Shown here piece by piece: positions 37,693-54,873 of a DNA stretch of 64,000 nt. Position numbers and translations under genes: made by a program. Under the pieces are notes generated by a model. It saw only the letters and a program-made list of their open reading frames with translations, searched no databases and was not told where the DNA came from. The stretch lies in NCBI GenBank assembly GCA_965216665.1, contig OZ244194.1:3611129-3675128 (forward strand), read 5' to 3'. Each line of letters begins with the position of its first letter. The first letter of the stretch is position 1. Source of the DNA: Arenicellales bacterium. Lineage in GTDB: Bacteria; Pseudomonadota; Gammaproteobacteria; Arenicellales; JAANXG01.

Positions 37693-38730
37693 TCACATGA
37701 ACAGTTCCGTGAGGTCGATTGATGAACGCTTTCCAAGGTGGCGAGCATTGGCGTCCAGCCACCGTTCGGCGCGCTGCCGGCCCTGATCGCGCAGCATCTC
37801 GAGAAACGTACGGTGAATATTCATTCTGCTTTCATGGGGTAGCTGTACCATCAAGTCGTCTCCTTCGATCATGTGAAAACGCAGCCTGCGCAAGCGGCGC
37901 TCAAGGCGCCCGATCAACACACGCGCGCCGGCGAGATGCTGCTTGACATAGGCCACCGCCCGCATTTCACGCAGGAATGCGGAGTTGAAGCTCAATTCGG
38001 CAACACGGTGCGCAATCTCCTCCTGAGTGTTGGGCAGCTCGGGCCGCTGTAGCGGGTTCAACAAGACGATGATGATGTCGGCGGAGCGACATTTATAGAA
38101 CAATGGAGAAATCGCTGGATTGGCGACGAAGCCGCCGTCCCAGTAAGCGCGATCATCGATGATGATCGCTTGGTTTACCGACGGCAAACACGCCGAGGCA
38201 AGCAAGGCGTCCGTCGTTATCTCGCGATTGGAGAACAAGCGCAACTTGCCGGTGCGGACTTCGGTGGCAGCGATGAACAGTTTGACCTGGTCGCACTGTT
38301 GGATGCGCGCGAAGTCGAAACTCTCTTCGACGATATCGCGAAGCGGGTTGATGTCGAACGGGTTCCACTGGTACGGTGACAACGCGCGGGTGAGTCTCAG
38401 AAACGCTTTCCAGGTGGGAGAGAGCTCACCGCCCTCAATACTGTCCCCATCCGTGCCGAGCAGATTGACCGCCGCCCCTTCCAGCGGCATCTGGTCGGCC
38501 ACCCGATGCCAAAAGGTGTCCAGAGTTTCCCTCGCTGCCTCCGGTCCGCCGGATGCCAGACCGTGAGCGACGCAGACAGCATTCATTGCACCGGCGCTGG
38601 CGGCGCTGATGCCCTCGAGTTCGATGCCCCGCTCTTCCAACAGCCGCTCCAAGACACCCCAACAGAAGGCGCCGTGGGAGCCGCCACCCTGGAGGGCTAA
38701 GTTGACTTTCTTTCGCGGCCACCGGCGCAT
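37693..38730 (-). CDS. patatin-like phospholipase
   Basis: Gly-rich oxyanion loop LALQGGGSHGAF. Nucleophile elbow around GISAASAGA. DGG catalytic Asp motif (YWDGGFVANP). Confidence 0.7.
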   Translation of the reverse strand: MRRWPRKKVNLALQGGGSHGAFCWGVLERLLEERGIELEGISAASAGAMNAVCVAHGLASGGPEAARETLDTFWHRVADQMPLEGAAVNLLGTDGDSIEGGELSPTWKAFLRLTRALSPYQWNPFDINPLRDIVEESFDFARIQQCDQVKLFIAATEVRTGKLRLFSNREITTDALLASACLPSVNQAIIIDDRAYWDGGFVANPAISPLFYKCRSADIIIVLLNPLQRPELPNTQEEIAHRVAELSFNSAFLREMRAVAYVKQHLAGARVLIGRLERRLRRLRFHMIEGDDLMVQLPHESRMNIHRTFLEMLRDQGRQRAERWLDANARHLGKRSSIDLTELFM

Positions 38731-39592: not shown

Positions 39593-39970
39593 ATGGCTGC
39601 GAAGAAAACCTCGAGGAAGAAAACGGCGCGCAAGAAACGAACCGCAAAAGCCACACGAAGCACGAAGAAAAGCGCGCCCGGGAAGAAAACTCGATCCGTC
39701 AGGAAACGAGCCACAACGAAGCAAAGCGGTGCGAAGAAAACCTCGCGGGCACGAAAGAGTGCCTCGGTAATTTCAGCCCTGAAATACAAAGGTCGAACCG
39801 TCGAGGTCGTTAAGGGGCGGGTCACTCCGGCGCTGGAGGTCGACGGTCGCGCAGTGCCGGTGAAGCGCGATGCCGACACCGGATTTTACTCGACTCCCGG
39901 CGCGCCGTATTTGCGATTCGCCACGCTCGAGGAGGCCGGTAAGGGGGTCGTCGACAGCGAATCAGACTAA
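39593..39970 (+). CDS. histone H1-like basic protein (KKT/AKK-repeat N-terminus + small C-terminal domain)
   Basis: ATG after AAGGAGA. N-terminal 75 aa are >40% K/R/T/A with repeated KKTxRKK motifs (AlgP/BpH1-like). Confidence 0.6.
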   Translation: MAAKKTSRKKTARKKRTAKATRSTKKSAPGKKTRSVRKRATTKQSGAKKTSRARKSASVISALKYKGRTVEVVKGRVTPALEVDGRAVPVKRDADTGFYSTPGAPYLRFATLEEAGKGVVDSESD

Positions 39971-40035: not shown

Positions 40036-41394
40036 GTGCACGTTCGAAAAAATGCCGCGGCTTTGACCAGCGAAGAGTGGGATCGATTCTTAAACGCCGT
40101 TATCACGCTCAAGCACACGTTTCCGGCCGGTTCCACGGTGAGCGTTTACGATCAATTCGTGGCCATTCATCTGGGGGTAACCCAGCTCACCGGTGCTCAG
40201 AACGTCGACGGTGGACACGCCGGGCCGGCCTTTTTGCCTTGGCATCGCGAGTACCTGAAACGATTCGAACAAGCGCTCCAATCCGTCGACCCGCGCGTGA
40301 GCATTCCCTATTGGAACTGGGGTCTGGGCGGAGATGCGGAAACGATTCCGTTGTTCGCCGACAATCGTATGGGGCCCATGGGCTCGGGCGGCGCCAGCGG
40401 GTTCGACGTGATGAGCGGTTACTTCGCCGCGGCCCCCAATTCGTTTAACCCGATGGGCTGGACCATTCGCCCGGAGCTGCGCGTATTCGGCTCGGCGTTG
40501 CAACGCAATACGGTGCTTGATACGTCGACCGCTTTTGATCCGAGCCTGGGTGCCGGCTGGCCTTCGGCGACCGCGGTCGGCAATCTGCTGGCTTTGAGCT
40601 CCTACAACACCTTTCGCCCGGAGCTCGAATGGCCTCCGCACGGTGTCGTGCATGTCCGGATGGGACGCGACATGTCGCAGATGACCTCACCGAACGACCC
40701 GATCTTCTTTCTCCACCACGCGCAGGTGGACCGCATCTGGGCCCTGTGGCAGGCGGATCACCCGGGCAGCACGAATTACAATCCCCTCAATACCGGCGGC
40801 CCGGGCCACCGCCTGAACGACCCCATGTGGCCCTGGGACGGCGGGGCGTCGCAGACTCTCGCCGGGGTCGGAAACCTGGTTCCGCAGTATCCGCAAACCG
40901 ACGTGGTCACACCGGCCGCCGTGCTCGACCATCGGGCGCTGGGGTATTGCTACGCGGGCGAACCGGACTGCCCATGCCCGACAGGGGCACCCGCGCCGGT
41001 GCCGACGCCCGGCAACGGCATCCACGGCGAGGTGCGGCCGGATCTGTTGATTCCCGATAACCAGCCGGCGGGCGTCGTGAGCGCCATCAACATTACCGGC
41101 AGCGGATCGCTTACCGATATCGCCGTCACCGTAGACATCACCCACACCTGGCGCGGAGATTTGGAGCTCACGCTGATCGCCCCGGGCAACTTCAGTGCGT
41201 TACTCAAAGGGGCGACCGGTGAGGCGGGCAGCAATCTGCAGCGAACCTTCCGCCCCACGGATACGCCGGCGCTCGCAAGCCTCGTCCAGGGCGGTGTCAG
41301 CGTCGGCGGCCAATGGTCGCTGCACGTCGTCGATCGCGCACAGCGCGACGTCGGACGACTCGTGGCCTGGAGTCTGGACCTGCAGGTTGCGTAG
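40036..41394 (+). CDS. tyrosinase (type-3 copper) fused to a C-terminal proprotein-convertase P-domain
   Basis: GTG start after GGGAGA. CuA (H…WHREYL…) and CuB (HGVVHVRMG…FFLHHAQVDRIW) His clusters. C-terminal ~120 aa resemble a P-domain/galactose-binding-like fold (ITHTWRGDLELTLIAPG…GQWSLHVVD). Confidence 0.85.
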   Translation: MHVRKNAAALTSEEWDRFLNAVITLKHTFPAGSTVSVYDQFVAIHLGVTQLTGAQNVDGGHAGPAFLPWHREYLKRFEQALQSVDPRVSIPYWNWGLGGDAETIPLFADNRMGPMGSGGASGFDVMSGYFAAAPNSFNPMGWTIRPELRVFGSALQRNTVLDTSTAFDPSLGAGWPSATAVGNLLALSSYNTFRPELEWPPHGVVHVRMGRDMSQMTSPNDPIFFLHHAQVDRIWALWQADHPGSTNYNPLNTGGPGHRLNDPMWPWDGGASQTLAGVGNLVPQYPQTDVVTPAAVLDHRALGYCYAGEPDCPCPTGAPAPVPTPGNGIHGEVRPDLLIPDNQPAGVVSAINITGSGSLTDIAVTVDITHTWRGDLELTLIAPGNFSALLKGATGEAGSNLQRTFRPTDTPALASLVQGGVSVGGQWSLHVVDRAQRDVGRLVAWSLDLQVA

Positions 41395-41453: not shown

Positions 41454-42953
41454 CTAGACGGACTGGATGGCGCGCATCAGATCGACTAGACCGCTGCCCT
41501 GGAAATAGCGTTCCCGTCCCAGATCCGTGGCGGTCGACAGGAAGATCTCCTTGACCCGCTCGGGTTGGTTCCTGAATTCCCGCCGTATCGACAGAAAAGC
41601 GGCGATGCAGCCCGACACGTGAGGCGCCGCCATACTCGTACCGCTGTCTTCCATATACAGGCAGTCGTGCGAATTCCCTCTTCTGGCCTCCGCTGCGCAG
41701 GAAATGACCCGCTCTCCGGGCGCGACGATGTCCGGCTTCAGGCGGCCGTCTCCGGTGGGTCCTTTTGCGGAAAAGTAGGAAACCCCGTATACGTGTGGCA
41801 TGTACCTGTGGGTAGACCCCACGGTAATCGCGAGATTGGCATTTCCCGGGTCGCGAATGGTTCCCGTCAAGCCGGTGTCGATGGCACCTTTGAACTTCGT
41901 TTGTACTTTTCCGTAACCGGCATTGCCGGCGGCGACCACGACGACCGTTCCGGAGCGCACCAGTCTGTCGACCTCTACGCAGAGGGGGCTCTGTCCGCAG
42001 CCGAACCACTCCGGGTCGAAGGGGTGTCCGAGACTGATGTTCACCCCGTGTATATGCGGCAGGCGCCCGTCTCCGTTGACGCGGCGGATGTAACCGAGCG
42101 CCGCGATGATGTTGCTGGTATGCAGGCATCCGTCCTTGTCCGCCACCTTCAAGCTCACAATCTTGCACTCCGGCGCGATTCCGCGAATGGAGTCCAGTTC
42201 GATTTCCTCGTAATTGATCGAGTCCTTTTCGTCGCGGCAGCGCACCACGGCACGGACGGGTTCAGCACCCTCGCCGGCGACATTTTCCCCGGCGATGATT
42301 CCCGCAACGTGCGTGCCGTGACCGTTGTCGTCCGTCAGTTTGTCGACGGACTCGATAGACACCGGTTGCGCGCCGGAAAAGTCCCAATGCGTCAGGGGTG
42401 GGGGCAGTTTCAGGTTTTCATGCCTCTGGAAATGGGGGTGCGTGCCGTCGATGCCGGAATCGATGACCGCCCAGACGATCGCGCGGCCTCCGGCGGCGAA
42501 AGCCGCCCGCGCCGCATCGGCTTTGACCGTCGTTACGGTCTCGTTCAGCAGTAGCTCGACCTCGAAGTCCGGCCAGATCTTATAGATCGGACGATACACT
42601 CGCGTCTTGTATTCCGCGCGCGACTCCGGCGGCTGGTCCGCATCTTCAACGCGACGTGACTCATTTTGATGCGCCAGCTCTCGAATCTGTGCAGAGGTCA
42701 GGCTGGCGAACACATACTGATCGGTATCATCAGATAAAAGTTTATTGACCGCATCCTCTCCGGCGAGTTGGACGATCATCTCCTCGACGTGCTGTTTCGT
42801 CTCTCGCCGGCCGCTGCGGTGGAGTAAATTCAGCTCCACGATGATGCGGTGGACCGCGTCGCCCTCCTTGTCTTCGTTCAGTTTCTTGAGCAGCGGTACC
42901 GCAACGACCGTATTGTCGAGATTTGCGACTAACTCACTTTTTTCGTCCGCCAT
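41454..42953 (-). CDS. S8 subtilisin-like serine peptidase, no signal peptide (cytoplasmic)
   Basis: ATG 42953 after GGGAGG. Catalytic triad motifs VIDSGIDGTHP (D), HGTHVAGIIAG (H), GTSMAAPHVSG (S). ~150-aa N-terminal extension. Lower GC than the genome. Confidence 0.8.
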   Translation of the reverse strand: MADEKSELVANLDNTVVAVPLLKKLNEDKEGDAVHRIIVELNLLHRSGRRETKQHVEEMIVQLAGEDAVNKLLSDDTDQYVFASLTSAQIRELAHQNESRRVEDADQPPESRAEYKTRVYRPIYKIWPDFEVELLLNETVTTVKADAARAAFAAGGRAIVWAVIDSGIDGTHPHFQRHENLKLPPPLTHWDFSGAQPVSIESVDKLTDDNGHGTHVAGIIAGENVAGEGAEPVRAVVRCRDEKDSINYEEIELDSIRGIAPECKIVSLKVADKDGCLHTSNIIAALGYIRRVNGDGRLPHIHGVNISLGHPFDPEWFGCGQSPLCVEVDRLVRSGTVVVVAAGNAGYGKVQTKFKGAIDTGLTGTIRDPGNANLAITVGSTHRYMPHVYGVSYFSAKGPTGDGRLKPDIVAPGERVISCAAEARRGNSHDCLYMEDSGTSMAAPHVSGCIAAFLSIRREFRNQPERVKEIFLSTATDLGRERYFQGSGLVDLMRAIQSV

Positions 42954-43042
42954 TGAGTGCTTGCCTCCCAGCCGGCGATGGATGGATTGCTGTGCCGGCG
43001 GTGGGTTGTCCCCGATGGTGACATCAAACACGCCGGAAATTC

Positions 43043-43058
43043 TGTGAAATCCGTCACA
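43043..43058. promoter_or_regulatory. CRP/FNR-type palindrome TGTGA-N6-TCACA
   Basis: tgtgaaatccgtcaca, a perfect half-sites match. Lies in the divergent intergenic region between the S8 peptidase and the TIR gene. Confidence 0.3.
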
Positions 43059-43126
43059 GACCGGGTCTCAGCGCGTCTTTCTCGAGACCGGTATGGGTTC
43101 GCACACGCGTTCGGCGCGGAGAAATC

Positions 43127-43142
43127 TGTGCGAAATGTCACG
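43127..43142. promoter_or_regulatory. second CRP-like site TGTGC-N6-TCACG
   Basis: tgtgcgaaatgtcacg. Imperfect copy 84 bp from the first, with a shared flanking gaaat-ctgtg context. Confidence 0.25.
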
Positions 43143-43330
43143 GAAAATTCGCCTCGGGCGGCGTAGAAATACTCCTGGGATGGCACCTGAACCCGAGGGT
43201 CGGATCCCCGGGGCCACGACAAACTGCTCGCGCCCCGACGGGGCGGTCAGGAGCGGTCGTGTACGGGACGACCAAAAATGCGCAAGCGGGGGCGTTGACG
43301 AGGATGGAAGGTCGAGCAGAGGGGAAAACG

Positions 43331-44638
43331 ATGACTGACCAATTGAGTATATTTATCAGCCACAAGCACGAGGATGAGCTCGCCGCCAGCGGCATCAAAG
43401 ACATTCTGAAGAACTTCGACGATGAAAACAGCGAGAAGCTGAAGTTCTTTCTATCCGAAGAAATCCCCGGGGGCGCGAACTGGTATCAATGGATCAAGTC
43501 GCGGCTCGTCGAATCCAATCTGCTGTTGCTGCTTTTCACCGACGTGACCAAGTCCTGGGACTGGTGCCTGTACGAGGCGGGCCTGTTCGACAGGCTCGAC
43601 GACAATCATCACCGAAGAGTGATCTGTCTACACAGCTCGACCGCAACGCCGCCAGACCCGCTGCAGCACCTGCAGGCATTTCCAGCCCTGCCGGGAAAGC
43701 TACGTACGTTCGTCGAGCAGTTGTTCGTAAAGACGGACCTGACCCAATTGGAGGAGCCCATCGCGCCGTGGTTGGCCAAGGCTCCCGAGCAGGTCGAGGG
43801 TGCGGCTCAAGAAATTGCCTCGCTCATCGATCGCAAACCCGTGCAAACGAATTATTTCAGTAGGTACGTGTTCATCCACGTCAAGGAGCCGGAAAAGATT
43901 CAGCGTGGAGAAATACCGGGCGACGCACCGATCATATCCAATGGGAAGACGCTCGAACTTTTCGACCGCGCGCCGACGGAAGGGTTGACCTGGGACAAGC
44001 TCGAGGCGAACGCACGCGCGAGCGAGGATGACCGGTGGGTGGACGAGCTCGCCGAGGCCGTGTATGTCGCCAGTAAGGGTAACCTGCCGAAGGCTGCCCA
44101 CGGTTTGTTCTATTCACAACGTGGTGAGAAGGTGTACCGGCCGAGCCTTTACCGGGTCGACGAACTGGCCGATGGCTCGATGATTTTCAAGGTGCTTTTC
44201 GAAGAGGACATCTCGTGGCGGCTCGACGACGTACCGAAGTATCATGCGGCGCTACTCACTTCGCTGGTGATGGCGACCCGTTTCAAGTACGAGCTTTTAG
44301 AGAAGTATCGGGGTGAACTCGAAGGCTTGGCGGGAGAAGAAGCCGACTCGGCATTCGGTAGCATCCGGAAGACGATTCGCAATATCGAGAGCGAGGCGGC
44401 GGCACGCGGATTGATGGACCAGAAGTCGCTCGTCAAGGTGTTCAAGAAACACGATCAAGAGAAGATCAGGGGCATGTACAAGCAATGGGACGTAGTCCGT
44501 TCCGCGGTGCTCACGGCTTTGGACGACCACGACGCGGCGGCGCTGGAAGGCCAGCTCGAAGCGCTGAGCAGCATGAACCACGAATACCTGACGCTGGCAT
44601 CTGAGCGGTATCACCACATCATGGCTACGCCGCTTTAG
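43331..44638 (+). CDS. TIR-domain protein with ~300-aa uncharacterised C-terminal domain
   Basis: ATG 43331 after GAGGGG. N-terminal ~140 aa match the bacterial TIR_2 pattern (IFISHKHEDE…NWYQWI…LLLLLFTDVTKSWDWCLYEAGLF) including the conserved W-C-x-x-E putative catalytic Glu. The rest is helical with no known motifs. GC clearly below the genome average. Confidence 0.75.
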   Translation: MTDQLSIFISHKHEDELAASGIKDILKNFDDENSEKLKFFLSEEIPGGANWYQWIKSRLVESNLLLLLFTDVTKSWDWCLYEAGLFDRLDDNHHRRVICLHSSTATPPDPLQHLQAFPALPGKLRTFVEQLFVKTDLTQLEEPIAPWLAKAPEQVEGAAQEIASLIDRKPVQTNYFSRYVFIHVKEPEKIQRGEIPGDAPIISNGKTLELFDRAPTEGLTWDKLEANARASEDDRWVDELAEAVYVASKGNLPKAAHGLFYSQRGEKVYRPSLYRVDELADGSMIFKVLFEEDISWRLDDVPKYHAALLTSLVMATRFKYELLEKYRGELEGLAGEEADSAFGSIRKTIRNIESEAAARGLMDQKSLVKVFKKHDQEKIRGMYKQWDVVRSAVLTALDDHDAAALEGQLEALSSMNHEYLTLASERYHHIMATPL

Positions 44639-44943: not shown

Positions 44944-46312
44944 TGCAAGATAACGTAACGTATTTTTCGCTTTTGTGAAGCGGTGGTCTCGGTCTGGTTT
45001 AATTGGAATTGCGAAGACCAATGAACCAAGACCATAGGAGAGACCACCATGAGTAAAGATACCAAAAAGCCGCTGGGGAAGGTGATTGGAATTGACGAAG
45101 GGCGGATTGAGCGGCATGTGAGCGAGCTGGTGCGAGGCAGCGTGGAGAAGACGCTGAACGAGCTGCTGGACGCGGAGGCGGACCAGTTATGCAATGCGCC
45201 GAAGTACAGTCGTTCCCCGGAGCGGATGGATACGCGCGCCGGGCATTACACACGGAAGCTACACACCGGGGCTGGAGAGGTGGAGCTGAAGGTGCCGAAG
45301 CTGCGGAAAGCGACGTTCGAGACGGCGATCATTGAGCGTTATCGGCGCCGTGAGGCGAGTGTGGAGGAATCGCTGATCGAGATGTATTTGGCGGGGGTGT
45401 CGGTCCGGCGTGTGGAGACGATCACCGAGGCGCTGTGGGGCACACGGGTCAGTGCCTCGACGGTGAGCCGCCTGAACAAGCGGATCTACAGCCATATTGA
45501 GCGTTGGCGGAATCGGCCGATTACGGATGAGTTTGCCTACGTGTACCTGGATGGCGTGGTGCTGAAGCGCAGCTGGGGCGGTGAGGTGCGCAATTTATCG
45601 GTGTTGGTGGCGATCGGGGTGGCGCAGGACGGTTACCGGCAGATACTGGGCGTGGCCGAAGGGGCGAAGGAAGACAAGGCCGGCTGGTCGGGATTTCTTG
45701 AGCACCTGAGGACCCGGGGCTTGAAAGGTGTGCAGTTGGTGGTCTCGGATGCCTGTATGGGCCTGGTCGAGAGTGTCAGCGAACACTTTCCCGAGGCGCG
45801 CTGGCAGCGTTGTGTGGTGCATTTCTACCGCAACGTATTCAGTCATGTGCCGCGTGGCAAAGTCCGAGCGGTGGCGCGGATGTTGAAGGCGATCCATGCG
45901 TCGGAAGACCTGGCCGCGGCTCAAGATAAGGCCCAGGCAGTGGTGACCAAACTCAAGGAGCTGCGCCTGACCAAAGCGGCGGAGCTGGTCGCAAAACATA
46001 TCGACGAAACACTGATTTTCTACCGCTTTCCCGCACCGCACTGGCGGCGGATCCGGACGAACAACCCTTTGGAGCGGATCATCCGCGAGATTCGCCGGCG
46101 TACACGCGTGGTCGGGGCCTTTCCTGACGGCGAATCGGCGCTGATGCTGGTTTCCGCCAGGCTACGGCATATTGCCACCACCAAATGGGGAACAAGACGT
46201 TATCTGAAGATGGAGTTATTGAACGAGCCGCTCGAAGCTGACGTGGCCATTGCATGAACTGGATCGAGACCATCGCTCAAAAAAAGCGAAATAATCGTTG
46301 CACTACCTCCTG
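44944..46312 (+). mobile_element. IS256-family insertion sequence (~1.37 kb) with imperfect terminal inverted repeats
   Basis: Left end …cgtatttttcgcttttgtgaagcggtggtctcggtctgg… matches the reverse complement of the right end …ccagatcgagaccatcgctcaaaaaaagcgaaataatcg… at ~30/41 positions. Encloses a mutator-type transposase. Boundaries approximate (±15 bp). Confidence 0.75.
45049..46257 (+). CDS. IS256-family (mutator-type) transposase
   Basis: 402 aa. Conserved IS256 transposase blocks (YVYLDGVVLK…, LVVSDACMGLVESV…, CVVHFYRNV…). AGGAG RBS. Confidence 0.9.
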   Translation: MSKDTKKPLGKVIGIDEGRIERHVSELVRGSVEKTLNELLDAEADQLCNAPKYSRSPERMDTRAGHYTRKLHTGAGEVELKVPKLRKATFETAIIERYRRREASVEESLIEMYLAGVSVRRVETITEALWGTRVSASTVSRLNKRIYSHIERWRNRPITDEFAYVYLDGVVLKRSWGGEVRNLSVLVAIGVAQDGYRQILGVAEGAKEDKAGWSGFLEHLRTRGLKGVQLVVSDACMGLVESVSEHFPEARWQRCVVHFYRNVFSHVPRGKVRAVARMLKAIHASEDLAAAQDKAQAVVTKLKELRLTKAAELVAKHIDETLIFYRFPAPHWRRIRTNNPLERIIREIRRRTRVVGAFPDGESALMLVSARLRHIATTKWGTRRYLKMELLNEPLEADVAIA

Positions 46313-52257: not shown

Positions 52258-52869
52258 GAGGCAGCGTCCGACCAAGCGCACACCACGCTGCAGCGTGCTG
52301 CGCGCCGAACCCCGGCGCGACGCAGGTTCGTCACTGTCGATCGCGTTGGTTCTTAAGTGTGCGCGCCGTCGTCGTCTCGAAATCGGTATGTGGATCGATA
52401 CCGGCGTATCTTGCAATTCTGGCCCTCGTTTCCTAGTCCGTCCCTGTCTGGCTGCCTGGCACGCCGCAGGCATAAAGTTCATCGATGAGACTGCGAGTAT
52501 AAGAGACTTCCTTGGCTATGCCGCCAGCGCTGTATTGGTTTTTGTCATGTTTTATTAGTTTTTGTTAGGTCGCCTCGAACTGCTTTGGGGGTTTTTGCTA
52601 TTTTGAACTAGCCGGACGACGAATTGTAGAAATTATTTGACACTCAGTCAGACCATCGCCCCGGCAAGGAGCGTTTGAAGTCCGAGGGTATTTGGGGTGT
52701 CGGGACAACGCGACGTTTACCGGATGTGCGTCGTCCTTGGAGTGCAGAAGGACGGGGTGGGGCTCCGCAGTTGGAGCAGCACAACAGGGACGTTTTTGAC
52801 ACCGGGGATGTCGTCTAAGGGGGATATCGAAATTCAAGGGTCGTGATAGCGCGACCCTGGGGGGAAACA

Positions 52870-54873
52870 ATGAAAAGCAGCGCGTTCTTTTTCAGCTTTA
52901 CACTCACGATTTCCGCATCGTCACACGCCGCCACCATCGCGGTATTGGACAGTGGCGTATTACCGTTTCCGGAAGCCGTTCCATTCATCGAGGCCGGCGG
53001 TATTGATGTAGATACGGGGGGGATGCCGATAGATGATGATCCGGACCTTCATGGTACGCAAGTGTCTTTCGTAGCTGTAGCCGTTTCGGATTTCACGGCA
53101 AGAATACTTCCGGTGAAGGTACGAAAAATCATAAACCAACCTAAGGCCATCGATTTCGCGTCAACAGACCCTCGCGTCAAAATACTTAATCTTAGTTGGA
53201 TTGACGCGGTGTTTCACGTTCCTACGGTGGATGCTCTGGTGAGAGCGGTGAACCGTGGGAAGTTGGTTGTGATGGCCGCGGGAAATTCCAGCCGGCCAGA
53301 CCCGGACTTTCCAGCCGGTGTCGTCCACTTGCTCAAGGGCCGCGGGTTGGCAGTTGGAGCAATAGGTGGGGATGGGAATCTGCGACCTTACAGCGCACGA
53401 GCTGGGAGGTTAAAAGATCATTATGTTGTTGCTCCCGACGGATTTACGGGGTTGGGTGGTCAGCTATTGACCGGTACATCGTTTGCCGCCCCTGTCGTGT
53501 CTGGTTTGGCAGCACTCTTGCTAGAGCAGTCACCATTCTTAAGTGCGCGCGATCTCGCATCGATTATAAAGCGCACCACCATTGACCTCGGTGCGCCGGG
53601 TGTGGATGCGATTTACGGGCACGGGCTGGTTACGCTGGCGGCGCTGAGTGCACCGGTCGGTGCGACCCGCCTCGCCAGCGGCGATTCGGTCGATGGCGGT
53701 GCCGTCACTCTGTCTGCGCAGACGCTGCGTGGCAGCCCCGCATTTGCATATGCGCTGCTCGATCGCAGTAATCTGCTCGGCGAGACCATGATTCTGGACG
53801 AGTACAAGCGCGCCTTCGTCATGGATCTCGCCACGACTATTGACGTTGCCGAAAACCGCACCGCACTCAACGATCTGATCAACAGCCGATTTTTCGAATC
53901 GGTGGATCTCGCGTTGGGTCACTCGAAGCTGACCCTGCGCTACGCGCCTACCGCCACACCTACCGAGTTGTTTGCGTATCCGGACGAAGACTATGGAACT
54001 TCTTTCGAGGATCTCAGTCTGTCGTTGTTCGGCGTTATCGACGCGATCAGTTTTCGCCTCGACACCAACGCGCGGTCGGGCGCGGGATTCGGAAGCGCCG
54101 GTTTGCATGAAACCGCGCTTCTCTTCTCCGACCGAGTGTTCGACGCACCGTACTTGAGCTTCGCGAAGAACTCGACGAGCATGAGTGTGGGTTACGGTCT
54201 GAACGACAAGTTCACGCTACGGTTCGGTACCGATCTGACCGATGAGTCGGACGCTCACGGTCTTAAGAGTCTGTCCGACATCCTGCGTGCGGAATACCAG
54301 GCGACCGACCGCCTGAATTTGGGTGTGCAGGCTGGCCGTACTGTCGAGCAGGGCTCGCTGTACGGCGGGACCACCGGCGGGGTGTTTGCCGTCGACACCG
54401 CGGAGACCAATTTCGTCGGGCTGTCCGCGCGTTACCGGTTGAGTTCGAACTTCGAACTGGCGTTCCGGTACTCCGAAGGGTCTACGGCGGTCGATGAATC
54501 GGCCAACAGCCTCCTCAGGAACCTTGATGATCTGCGCAGCCGTACCTACGGGATGGCGCTATTGGGCCGTGATCTGTTCACTAAGCGTGATCGTTTTGGC
54601 GTCGCCGTTTACAGTCCGTTGCGCGTAAAGACGGGTTCGGCGTCACTGAGCGTACCGCGAGCGCGCGATATTCCGGGCAACGTTTTGCGGGGCGAAGAAC
54701 GCGTGAATCTCACGCCAGCCGCCACCGAAACGGACGTCGAACTCTTCTACCGCGTTCCACTGGGCAGGCGATTCACGTTGGATACGCAGTTTTTGTATCA
54801 GCACAATCCGTATCACACGCACACCGTGGATGACCGAGTGGCAGTATTTTCGACTTTCCGTACCCGTTTCTGA
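52870..54873 (+). CDS. subtilase-family autotransporter (type Va): S8 peptidase passenger + beta-barrel translocator
   Basis: Signal peptide. S8 motifs IAVLDSGV (D), HGTQV (H), GTSFAAPVVSG (S). C-terminal ~270 aa beta-rich domain ending FRTRF (aromatic C-terminus). Confidence 0.8.
   Translation: MKSSAFFFSFTLTISASSHAATIAVLDSGVLPFPEAVPFIEAGGIDVDTGGMPIDDDPDLHGTQVSFVAVAVSDFTARILPVKVRKIINQPKAIDFASTDPRVKILNLSWIDAVFHVPTVDALVRAVNRGKLVVMAAGNSSRPDPDFPAGVVHLLKGRGLAVGAIGGDGNLRPYSARAGRLKDHYVVAPDGFTGLGGQLLTGTSFAAPVVSGLAALLLEQSPFLSARDLASIIKRTTIDLGAPGVDAIYGHGLVTLAALSAPVGATRLASGDSVDGGAVTLSAQTLRGSPAFAYALLDRSNLLGETMILDEYKRAFVMDLATTIDVAENRTALNDLINSRFFESVDLALGHSKLTLRYAPTATPTELFAYPDEDYGTSFEDLSLSLFGVIDAISFRLDTNARSGAGFGSAGLHETALLFSDRVFDAPYLSFAKNSTSMSVGYGLNDKFTLRFGTDLTDESDAHGLKSLSDILRAEYQATDRLNLGVQAGRTVEQGSLYGGTTGGVFAVDTAETNFVGLSARYRLSSNFELAFRYSEGSTAVDESANSLLRNLDDLRSRTYGMALLGRDLFTKRDRFGVAVYSPLRVKTGSASLSVPRARDIPGNVLRGEERVNLTPAATETDVELFYRVPLGRRFTLDTQFLYQHNPYHTHTVDDRVAVFSTFRTRF

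Follow-up and report, generated by a model that had tools for sequence, protein, structure and literature searches.

The window analysed here, a stretch of 64,000 nucleotides from an Arenicellales bacterium (contig OZ244194.1, positions 3,611,129 to 3,675,128 of the forward strand), contains two divergent genes, one for a TIR-domain protein and one for a cytoplasmic S8 subtilase, next to an insertion sequence (IS) of the IS256 family. A first-pass annotation of this sequence had proposed that the two genes form an undescribed defence module. Relatives of the two genes do not co-occur in the other genomes examined, which makes two independent immune-type genes the most likely explanation. We consider it probable that the TIR and S8 genes are independent and that they became neighbours only this once, in a variable spot flanked by an IS. 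The neighbouring IS256 element, together with the lack of conserved synteny, suggests that the two genes were brought together by a rearrangement in this variable region.

Relatives of the two genes do not co-occur

The loci of both gene families were collected and searched for members of the other. A scan of one genome per species yielded 80 TIR-side loci from at least ten phyla, and the counts with family profiles covered 87 TIR-side loci (1.09 Mb) and about 91 S8-side loci, about 180 in all. An S8 protease of the window family was found at none of the 87 TIR-side loci, where the profiles gave two generic matches of 34–60 bits, and the non-TIR C-terminal module of the TIR family was found at none of the approximately 91 S8-side loci. 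A tblastn search with the window S8 protein detected S8-like sequence at two of 83 TIR-family loci, in both cases 5–6 kb away from the TIR gene, and clustering of the open reading frames (ORFs) around the TIR-family genes at 83 loci revealed no recurrent neighbour family. These counts do not support the proposed two-gene unit of TIR protein and subtilase. The first-pass annotation had listed a lack of co-occurrence in other genomes among the findings that would speak against its proposal, and no co-occurrence was seen in any sample drawn.

The closest relatives of the TIR protein (61–62% identity) and of the S8 protease (58–77%) have other neighbours. Among the TIR relatives on usable contigs, P0004 (62% identity) has its gene between genes for TIR-WD40, TPR, TPR-S-patatin and MAP3K_TRAF_bd-TPR-S proteins, P0003 (61%) between a 106-residue ORF and an FrhB-like gene, and P0029 (46%) among metabolic genes. 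The island around P0004, the closest TIR homologue on a long contig, occupies L171:352-11566.

An association between S8 and TIR domains across the whole family was also considered and rejected, as the density of TIR ORFs near S8 genes is not enriched. Searches with TIR hidden Markov models found 8 TIR ORFs per 648 kb near S8-family genes versus 13 per 986 kb in comparison flanks, these flanks being TIR-family loci themselves and hence an imperfect background. Within the subclade to which the window S8 belongs (see below), two TIR genes were found in about 78 kb, with about one expected (rough Poisson P of about 0.26). Only one S8-side locus, L094, has a TIR ORF as immediate neighbour: at L094:1071-5097, an ORF with TIR-like segments precedes a canonical S8 gene by 299 bp, both being on one strand, and this ORF is devoid of the C-terminal module of the window TIR family.

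The S8 family has other partners

The S8 family is very large, with at least 8,000 members: every one of the 8,000 candidates scored was significant. A typical member is about 55% identical to others over its full length, across many phyla. A canonical sample of 84 loci was assembled from 80 metagenome loci and four others. At 56 of them, which is essentially every canonical locus with enough downstream sequence, a gene for a hydrolase-like protein of about 440 residues lies 0–19 bp downstream of the S8 gene on the same strand. This partner contains a GHSxG elbow, gives weak Pfam matches to α/β-hydrolases and has no PADLOC coverage. On pRL11 of Rhizobium johnstonii 3841 and on a megaplasmid of Burkholderia sp. 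SFA1, these two genes again occur together and carry the annotations “S8 family peptidase” and “hypothetical protein”. Kinship of the partner with the CHAT-linked DUF7379 hydrolase was rejected, as only the GHSxG elbow is common to both. This widespread cassette could be a protease-licensed effector pair.

In a neighbour-joining tree, the window S8 groups with P0122, P0123 and P0126–P0130, apart from the canonical family; P0131 (68% identity), which is outside the tree, was assigned to the same subclade by similarity. The hydrolase partner of about 440 residues is absent from this subclade, and a gene for a trypsin and/or a NucA nuclease is adjacent to the S8 gene in five of the seven other subclade contexts. 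A protein combining Trypsin_2 and Endonuclease_NS domains is encoded 106 bp upstream of the S8 gene in P0129 (646 residues) and 19 bp upstream in P0128 (628 residues), and a TPR-S, Trypsin_2 and Endonuclease_NS protein of 1,320 residues is encoded 213 bp downstream in P0126. In P0123, 39 bp separate the S8 gene from an upstream Trypsin_2 gene, a MAP3K_TRAF_bd/TPR-S/Trypsin_2 gene being found alongside, and P0131 has Endonuclease_NS fragments upstream.

This arrangement corresponds to “System 3”, a trypsin–NucA conflict system predicted computationally, in which S8 domains occur and for which a proteolytic cascade deploying the nuclease was proposed (Kaur, Burroughs, Iyer & Aravind 2020, eLife 9:e52696). 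The window S8 resembles it in belonging to the clade that accompanies the trypsin–NucA core, and differs in that the window contains the accessory protease alone, with no trypsin or NucA core. A tblastn search of the whole window with two trypsin–NucA proteins, the hydrolase partner and other TIR proteins as queries gave no match, and hence no remnant of a lost partner. The absence of trypsin–NucA leaves the window S8 as an orphaned accessory of the predicted conflict system.

Two further observations concern the S8 subclade. One subclade member, from Rhodopirellula sp. MGV (PPHI01000009.1), lies within a dense conflict island (L085:1-15470) containing TIR_2, TPR, a weakly SLOG-like protein of 242 residues, S8 and the 1,320-residue TPR-S–trypsin–NucA protein, as well as a DUF7379/PGAP1 hydrolase that overlaps a CHAT protease. 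P0125 (810 residues, 65% identity) joins an S8 domain of the window subclade to an SGNH/GDSL lipase domain (PF13472) in one polypeptide, a hint that this clade may pair with hydrolytic effectors.

The TIR family occurs alone

Searches detected 153 homologues of the TIR protein, in which the whole length of the sequence is conserved, and a search with its non-TIR module gave matches to 1,005 clusters (50% identity). The TIR domain directly precedes this module in 10 of 10 long members tested, so that the idea of other, swappable N-terminal domains on the module was discarded. No match to the TIR family was found in the plasmids, phages and viral contigs searched, and the S8 family was not found in the phages and viral contigs searched. 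Several TIR-family loci lie among metabolic genes, and additional TIR genes are often nearby. Patatin-like neighbours are found at three TIR-family loci besides L171.

Architecture of the TIR protein

The ORF of the TIR protein spans 43259-44638 on the forward strand, and the ATG at 43331, which gives a protein of 435 residues, is consistent with the starts of its homologues (Table 1). Pfam TIR_2 matches residues 7–116 with an E-value of 8.5e-8 and 33.2 bits, the gathering score being 28. The motif SWDWCLYEAGLF comprises residues 75–86, and D77, W78, C79 and E82 within it are invariant in an alignment of 33 TIR homologues. In a profile search against solved structures, E82 aligns with the glutamate of DWTNYEL in the NAD+ hydrolase (NADase) AbTir (7uwg_A), which we take to be the catalytic E208, and with that of DWCWDEL in Cat1. 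The protein thus has the fold and, at the catalytic position, the glutamate of TIR-domain NAD+ hydrolases, as had been claimed for it, and is predicted to have NADase activity.

The AlphaFold2 model of the protein has a mean predicted local distance difference test score (pLDDT) of 86.7. It contains three domains: the TIR domain, a middle domain of mixed α/β structure and a C-terminal bundle of four helices. The middle domain gives weak Foldseek matches to LOV/PAS domains (TMt of about 0.55, E-values of 0.06–0.3). Residues 136–435 match no Pfam, NCBIfam or PADLOC family, and no NCBIfam model matches the protein at all. The first reading of the C-terminal part as about 300 residues of helical sequence belonging to no family is therefore correct as regards the family, and not as regards the all-helical structure, since residues 146–292 are mixed α/β.

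The S8 subtilase

The S8 ORF spans 41454-43031 on the reverse strand, and the ATG at 42953, consistent with the N-termini of homologues, gives a protein of 499 residues. Both the S8 and the TIR starts are preceded by a GGAGG-like Shine–Dalgarno sequence. The Pfam Peptidase_S8 match (9e-42) covers residues 156–486; as this domain starts at residue 156, an N-terminal extension of about 155 residues is confirmed, close to the 150 or so estimated initially. The window protein contains D165, H212 and S440 of the catalytic triad as well as N344 at the oxyanion position, none of which varies across an alignment of 20 family members, and the order Asp, His, Ser, together with the oxyanion Asn, is that of the Peptidase S8 (subtilase) family. 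The N-terminus, MADEKSELVANLDNTVV, contains no hydrophobic signal-like stretch when read by eye, no predictor being used, in agreement with a cytoplasmic protein that has no signal peptide. Searches with Pfam and PADLOC, among the checks suggested for both proteins, bore out the TIR and S8 domain calls, and the alignment bore out the intact triad. In alignments of both families, neither window protein shows an insertion or deletion with respect to its stand-alone relatives.

Table 1 Features of the locus and of related S8 cassettes. Positions are those of the window unless a locus handle is given.
Feature	Position	Strand	Basis or detail
S8 subtilase, cytoplasmic, 499 residues	41454..42953	-	ORF; Pfam Peptidase_S8 9e-42
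S8 N-terminal extension, residues 1-155	42489-42953	-	
S8 catalytic domain, residues 156-486	41496-42488	-	
S8 triad codons	D165 42459-42461, H212 42318-42320, S440 41634-41636	-	
Divergent intergenic region, 377 bp between S8 and TIR start codons	42954..43330	.	GC 0.618
TIR-family protein, 435 residues, stand-alone type	43331..44638	+	ORF, homologue alignment, AlphaFold2 model
TIR domain, residues 1-132	43331..43726	+	Glu E82 codon 43574-43576 within WDWCLYEAG
Middle mixed α/β domain, residues 146-292, possibly PAS-like	43766..44206	+	Secondary structure, pLDDT
C-terminal helical bundle, residues 303-432	44237..44626	+	Four helices
IS256-family insertion sequence, 1,361 bp	44948..46308	+	Transposase 45049-46257, Transposase_mut 2.5e-115
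Canonical cassettes of S8 and ~440-residue partner 0-30 bp downstream (examples)	L088-L167 (e.g. L129:7001-9889), L176:5611-8625, L177:5812-8982		

Layout and composition of the locus

The S8 and TIR genes diverge from a common intergenic region of 377 bp, as originally described. Scans of this region found no sigma-70-like promoter and no terminator-like site, and the only repeats in it are short and weak. The IS256 element begins 310 bp past the TIR stop codon, matching the first estimate of about 300 bp. It contains a Mutator-type DDE transposase and imperfect terminal inverted repeats (44948-44999 and 46257-46308, 73% complementary) and has about the 1.3 kb expected, all of which assigns it to the IS256 family. 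This element does not belong functionally with the S8 and TIR genes; it marks a rearrangement-prone spot.

Both genes had been described as visibly lower in GC than their surroundings, from which horizontal acquisition was argued. The 30 long ORFs of the window have a mean GC of 0.621 (standard deviation (sd) 0.033) and a mean GC at third codon positions (GC3) of 0.734 (sd 0.069). The TIR gene (GC 0.570, GC3 0.741) is indeed about 1.5 sd low in GC, but the S8 gene (GC 0.599, GC3 0.730) lies less than 1 sd from the mean, and the GC3 of both genes does not deviate from that of the host. Given deviations of this size, the argument for horizontal acquisition from GC is weak.

The immediate neighbours of the pair are a tyrosinase fused to a P-domain, the IS256 element and a TonB-dependent receptor. 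The tyrosinase gene (40036-41394, forward strand), whose product carries a C-terminal proprotein-convertase P-domain, converges on the S8 gene with a gap of 59 bp; P-domains are normally found C-terminal of S8 catalytic domains. A second, unrelated S8 gene is located at 52843-54873 on the forward strand; it encodes a protein of 676 residues (Pfam 5e-17) with a signal-peptide-like N-terminus and adjoins a YfiR/HmsC-like DUF4154 gene and a histidine kinase/response regulator pair. Farther along the other flank, the gene at 39593-39970 (forward strand), between phasin-like and tyrosinase genes, encodes a 125-residue protein with no Pfam match, whose N-terminal half is extremely rich in Lys, Ala and Thr, a composition like that of histone H1. 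The window also contains a stand-alone patatin gene at 37693-38730.

Comparison with known systems

PADLOC and NCBIfam give matches at the level of single domains only, and the statement that the pair corresponds to no described defence system stands. No STAND NTPase, SIR2/ThsA, Argonaute, CD-NTase or IetA-like gene was found among the large ORFs of the window, and the TIR gene has no linked ThsA, CD-NTase, CRISPR or other partner at the 83 TIR-family loci or among the window ORFs. Bacterial TIR NADase effectors include AbTir, SpbK, ThsB, Cat1, TIR-STING and TIR-SAVED; the window protein differs from these in that its C-terminal module matches no known sensor domain. Its similarity to models of ThsB of Thoeris is marginal (17–22 bits): Pfam ThsB_TIR scores 17.3 bits on the window TIR protein against a cutoff of 21.2, and the best PADLOC match (2.8e-5, 21.9 bits) covers the TIR core only. 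ThsA (SIR2, Macro or transmembrane segments with SLOG) is not found among the neighbours or the large ORFs of the window, nor as a recurrent neighbour at the 83 loci. In contrast to CBASS, the TIR protein and its neighbours show no CD-NTase, SAVED or STING match in Pfam or PADLOC searches, and the fold of residues 136–435 resembles neither SAVED nor STING in Foldseek comparisons.

On the protease side, a comparison can be drawn with IetAS, which Gao et al. reportedly described in 2020 as a two-gene system of an ATPase and an S8 protease. The window S8 has the protease in common with it and gives partial PADLOC matches to IetS (best 3.6e-14, over residues 298–470). However, the NCBIfam IteS equivalog NF042956 reaches 36.6 bits where its cutoff is 900, IetS proteins are about 750–850 residues long compared with 499 for the window S8, and there is no IetA-like ATPase nearby. 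The PADLOC “subtilase” model PDLC03014, which matches at 3.6e-49, was dismissed as a lead to a known system: it is not diagnostic, because only its catalytic half is aligned (profile positions 164–388) and generic family members match it equally well. This model may derive from gasdermin-associated proteases.

Discussion

If the TIR and S8 genes are independent, each should be understood through its own family. The TIR gene would encode a self-contained, single-polypeptide effector belonging to a widespread family that occurs alone. By analogy with the general behaviour of TIR NADases, and given the fold and catalytic residue found here, the C-terminal module (the PAS-like α/β domain and the four-helix bundle) may hold the TIR domain inactive and sense a trigger. 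The trigger would induce oligomerisation, bringing TIR domains together so that E82 could cleave NAD+, and the outcome would be NAD+ depletion or an ADP-ribose-derived signal, followed by growth arrest. In relatives of the window S8, the protease most likely serves in the proteolytic licensing of a co-encoded trypsin–NucA nuclease. With no such substrate encoded beside it, the window S8 may either be idle or cleave a substrate encoded elsewhere.

Several observations weigh against a strict independence of the two genes. A TIR_2 protein is encoded within 1–3.3 kb in two of the seven other contexts of the S8 subclade, having only the TIR fold in common with the window TIR protein, and both gene families occur in islands rich in TPR-S/MAP3K_TRAF_bd proteins; together, these facts make a looser, island-level functional link between the two families possible. 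Close relatives are also few (three TIR contexts at 60% identity or more, and the seven other S8-subclade contexts), so that a pairing restricted to one lineage would be missed. Divergent genes with a common 377-bp region could be co-regulated. Finally, the gating of effectors by proteases is an established principle of bacterial immunity: proteases encoded beside latent death effectors have been shown experimentally to activate them by cleavage, and the classes of protease listed include the S8 type (Evans et al. 2025, preprint, bioRxiv 10.1101/2025.11.14.688446).

These points lead to an alternative in which the pair is a rare, lineage-specific two-gene module: the S8 protease would cut either the C-terminal module that keeps the TIR protein autoinhibited or a linker, and thereby release an active TIR NADase. 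In evolutionary terms this would be an effector swap, with the TIR protein replacing the trypsin–NucA partner of the S8 subclade, whose members normally lie beside a death effector in a predicted proteolytic cascade. The two genes are indeed adjacent and diverge from a common region, but the other S8–effector pairs are co-directional and 19–213 bp apart. Both enzymes appear catalytically intact from their sequences, yet alignment with stand-alone homologues shows no added linker or insertion in the window TIR protein, and everywhere else its family is found with no protease next to it. Licensing by cleavage is experimentally established for adjacent effectors of other types; TIR, however, is missing from the protease-linked effectors listed by Evans et al., and their zymogen pairs are recurrent and phylogenetically congruent, whereas the window pair was not seen again in about 180 loci sampled from both sides. 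The unrelated TIR_2 proteins near two other subclade members fit this alternative as well, although they are non-adjacent, belong to different families and are near the background frequency (two versus about one, P of about 0.26). Taken together, a protease-gated TIR protein is quite unlikely here; if true, it would add TIR to the proteolytically activated death effectors of bacteria.

It is also conceivable that neither gene is immune, the S8 being an intracellular protease of the AprX type and the TIR protein a housekeeping enzyme of NAD metabolism or a signalling protein regulated through its PAS-like module. Many S8 family members are labelled “serine protease AprX”, and the canonical S8 cassette is found among prfA/prmC, thiamine and ABC transporter genes, but the window subclade is tied to trypsin–NucA, TPR-S and CHAT genes in islands, and a nuclease–protease fusion is hard to reconcile with housekeeping. 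Similarly, the metabolic surroundings of several TIR-family loci, the absence of both families from the phages and viral contigs searched (and of the TIR family from plasmids) and the host-like GC3 would agree with a housekeeping role; against this, the TIR family is patchily distributed over at least ten phyla, with no conserved synteny and frequent additional TIR genes nearby, a combination typical of mobile defence genes. On balance, a housekeeping function of both genes is improbable. Another alternative, that the TIR protein is a SPARTA-like TIR-APAZ protein working with a short Argonaute, arises from Foldseek, which ranks TIR-APAZ chains first when the full model is compared with the PDB (E-value of 2e-5, 340–385 aligned columns), as well as from the similar length of about 435 residues and the N-terminal position of the TIR domain. 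The APAZ fold is not recovered, however, once the TIR domain is removed, and no Argonaute partner was found at the 83 loci or in the window. With both the APAZ domain and the short Argonaute wanting, this reading is effectively refuted and scarcely credible.

The reading of two independent genes thus stands as the probable one, and it has consequences for both families. A subtilase–TIR defence pair would be a new type of system, and the lack of comparative support for it removes a tempting false lead: two immune-type domains lying side by side next to an IS element are no evidence of a system. Both genes add new members to known types, namely a TIR-domain effector and an S8 protease of the predicted trypsin–NucA conflict system, and their adjacency is probably incidental. 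The TIR protein represents a sizeable, unannotated stand-alone family, with about 1,000 clusters at 50% identity. It combines an intact catalytic glutamate with a module of its own, made of the PAS-like domain and the helical bundle, and is a plausible candidate for an NAD+-targeting immune effector encoded by one gene. The tightly conserved S8 family, in turn, is linked to two adjacent partners, the hydrolase-like protein of about 440 residues or trypsin–NucA, both of them candidate protease-licensed effectors. The stand-alone TIR family and the two S8–partner cassettes are therefore candidates for immune or conflict functions.

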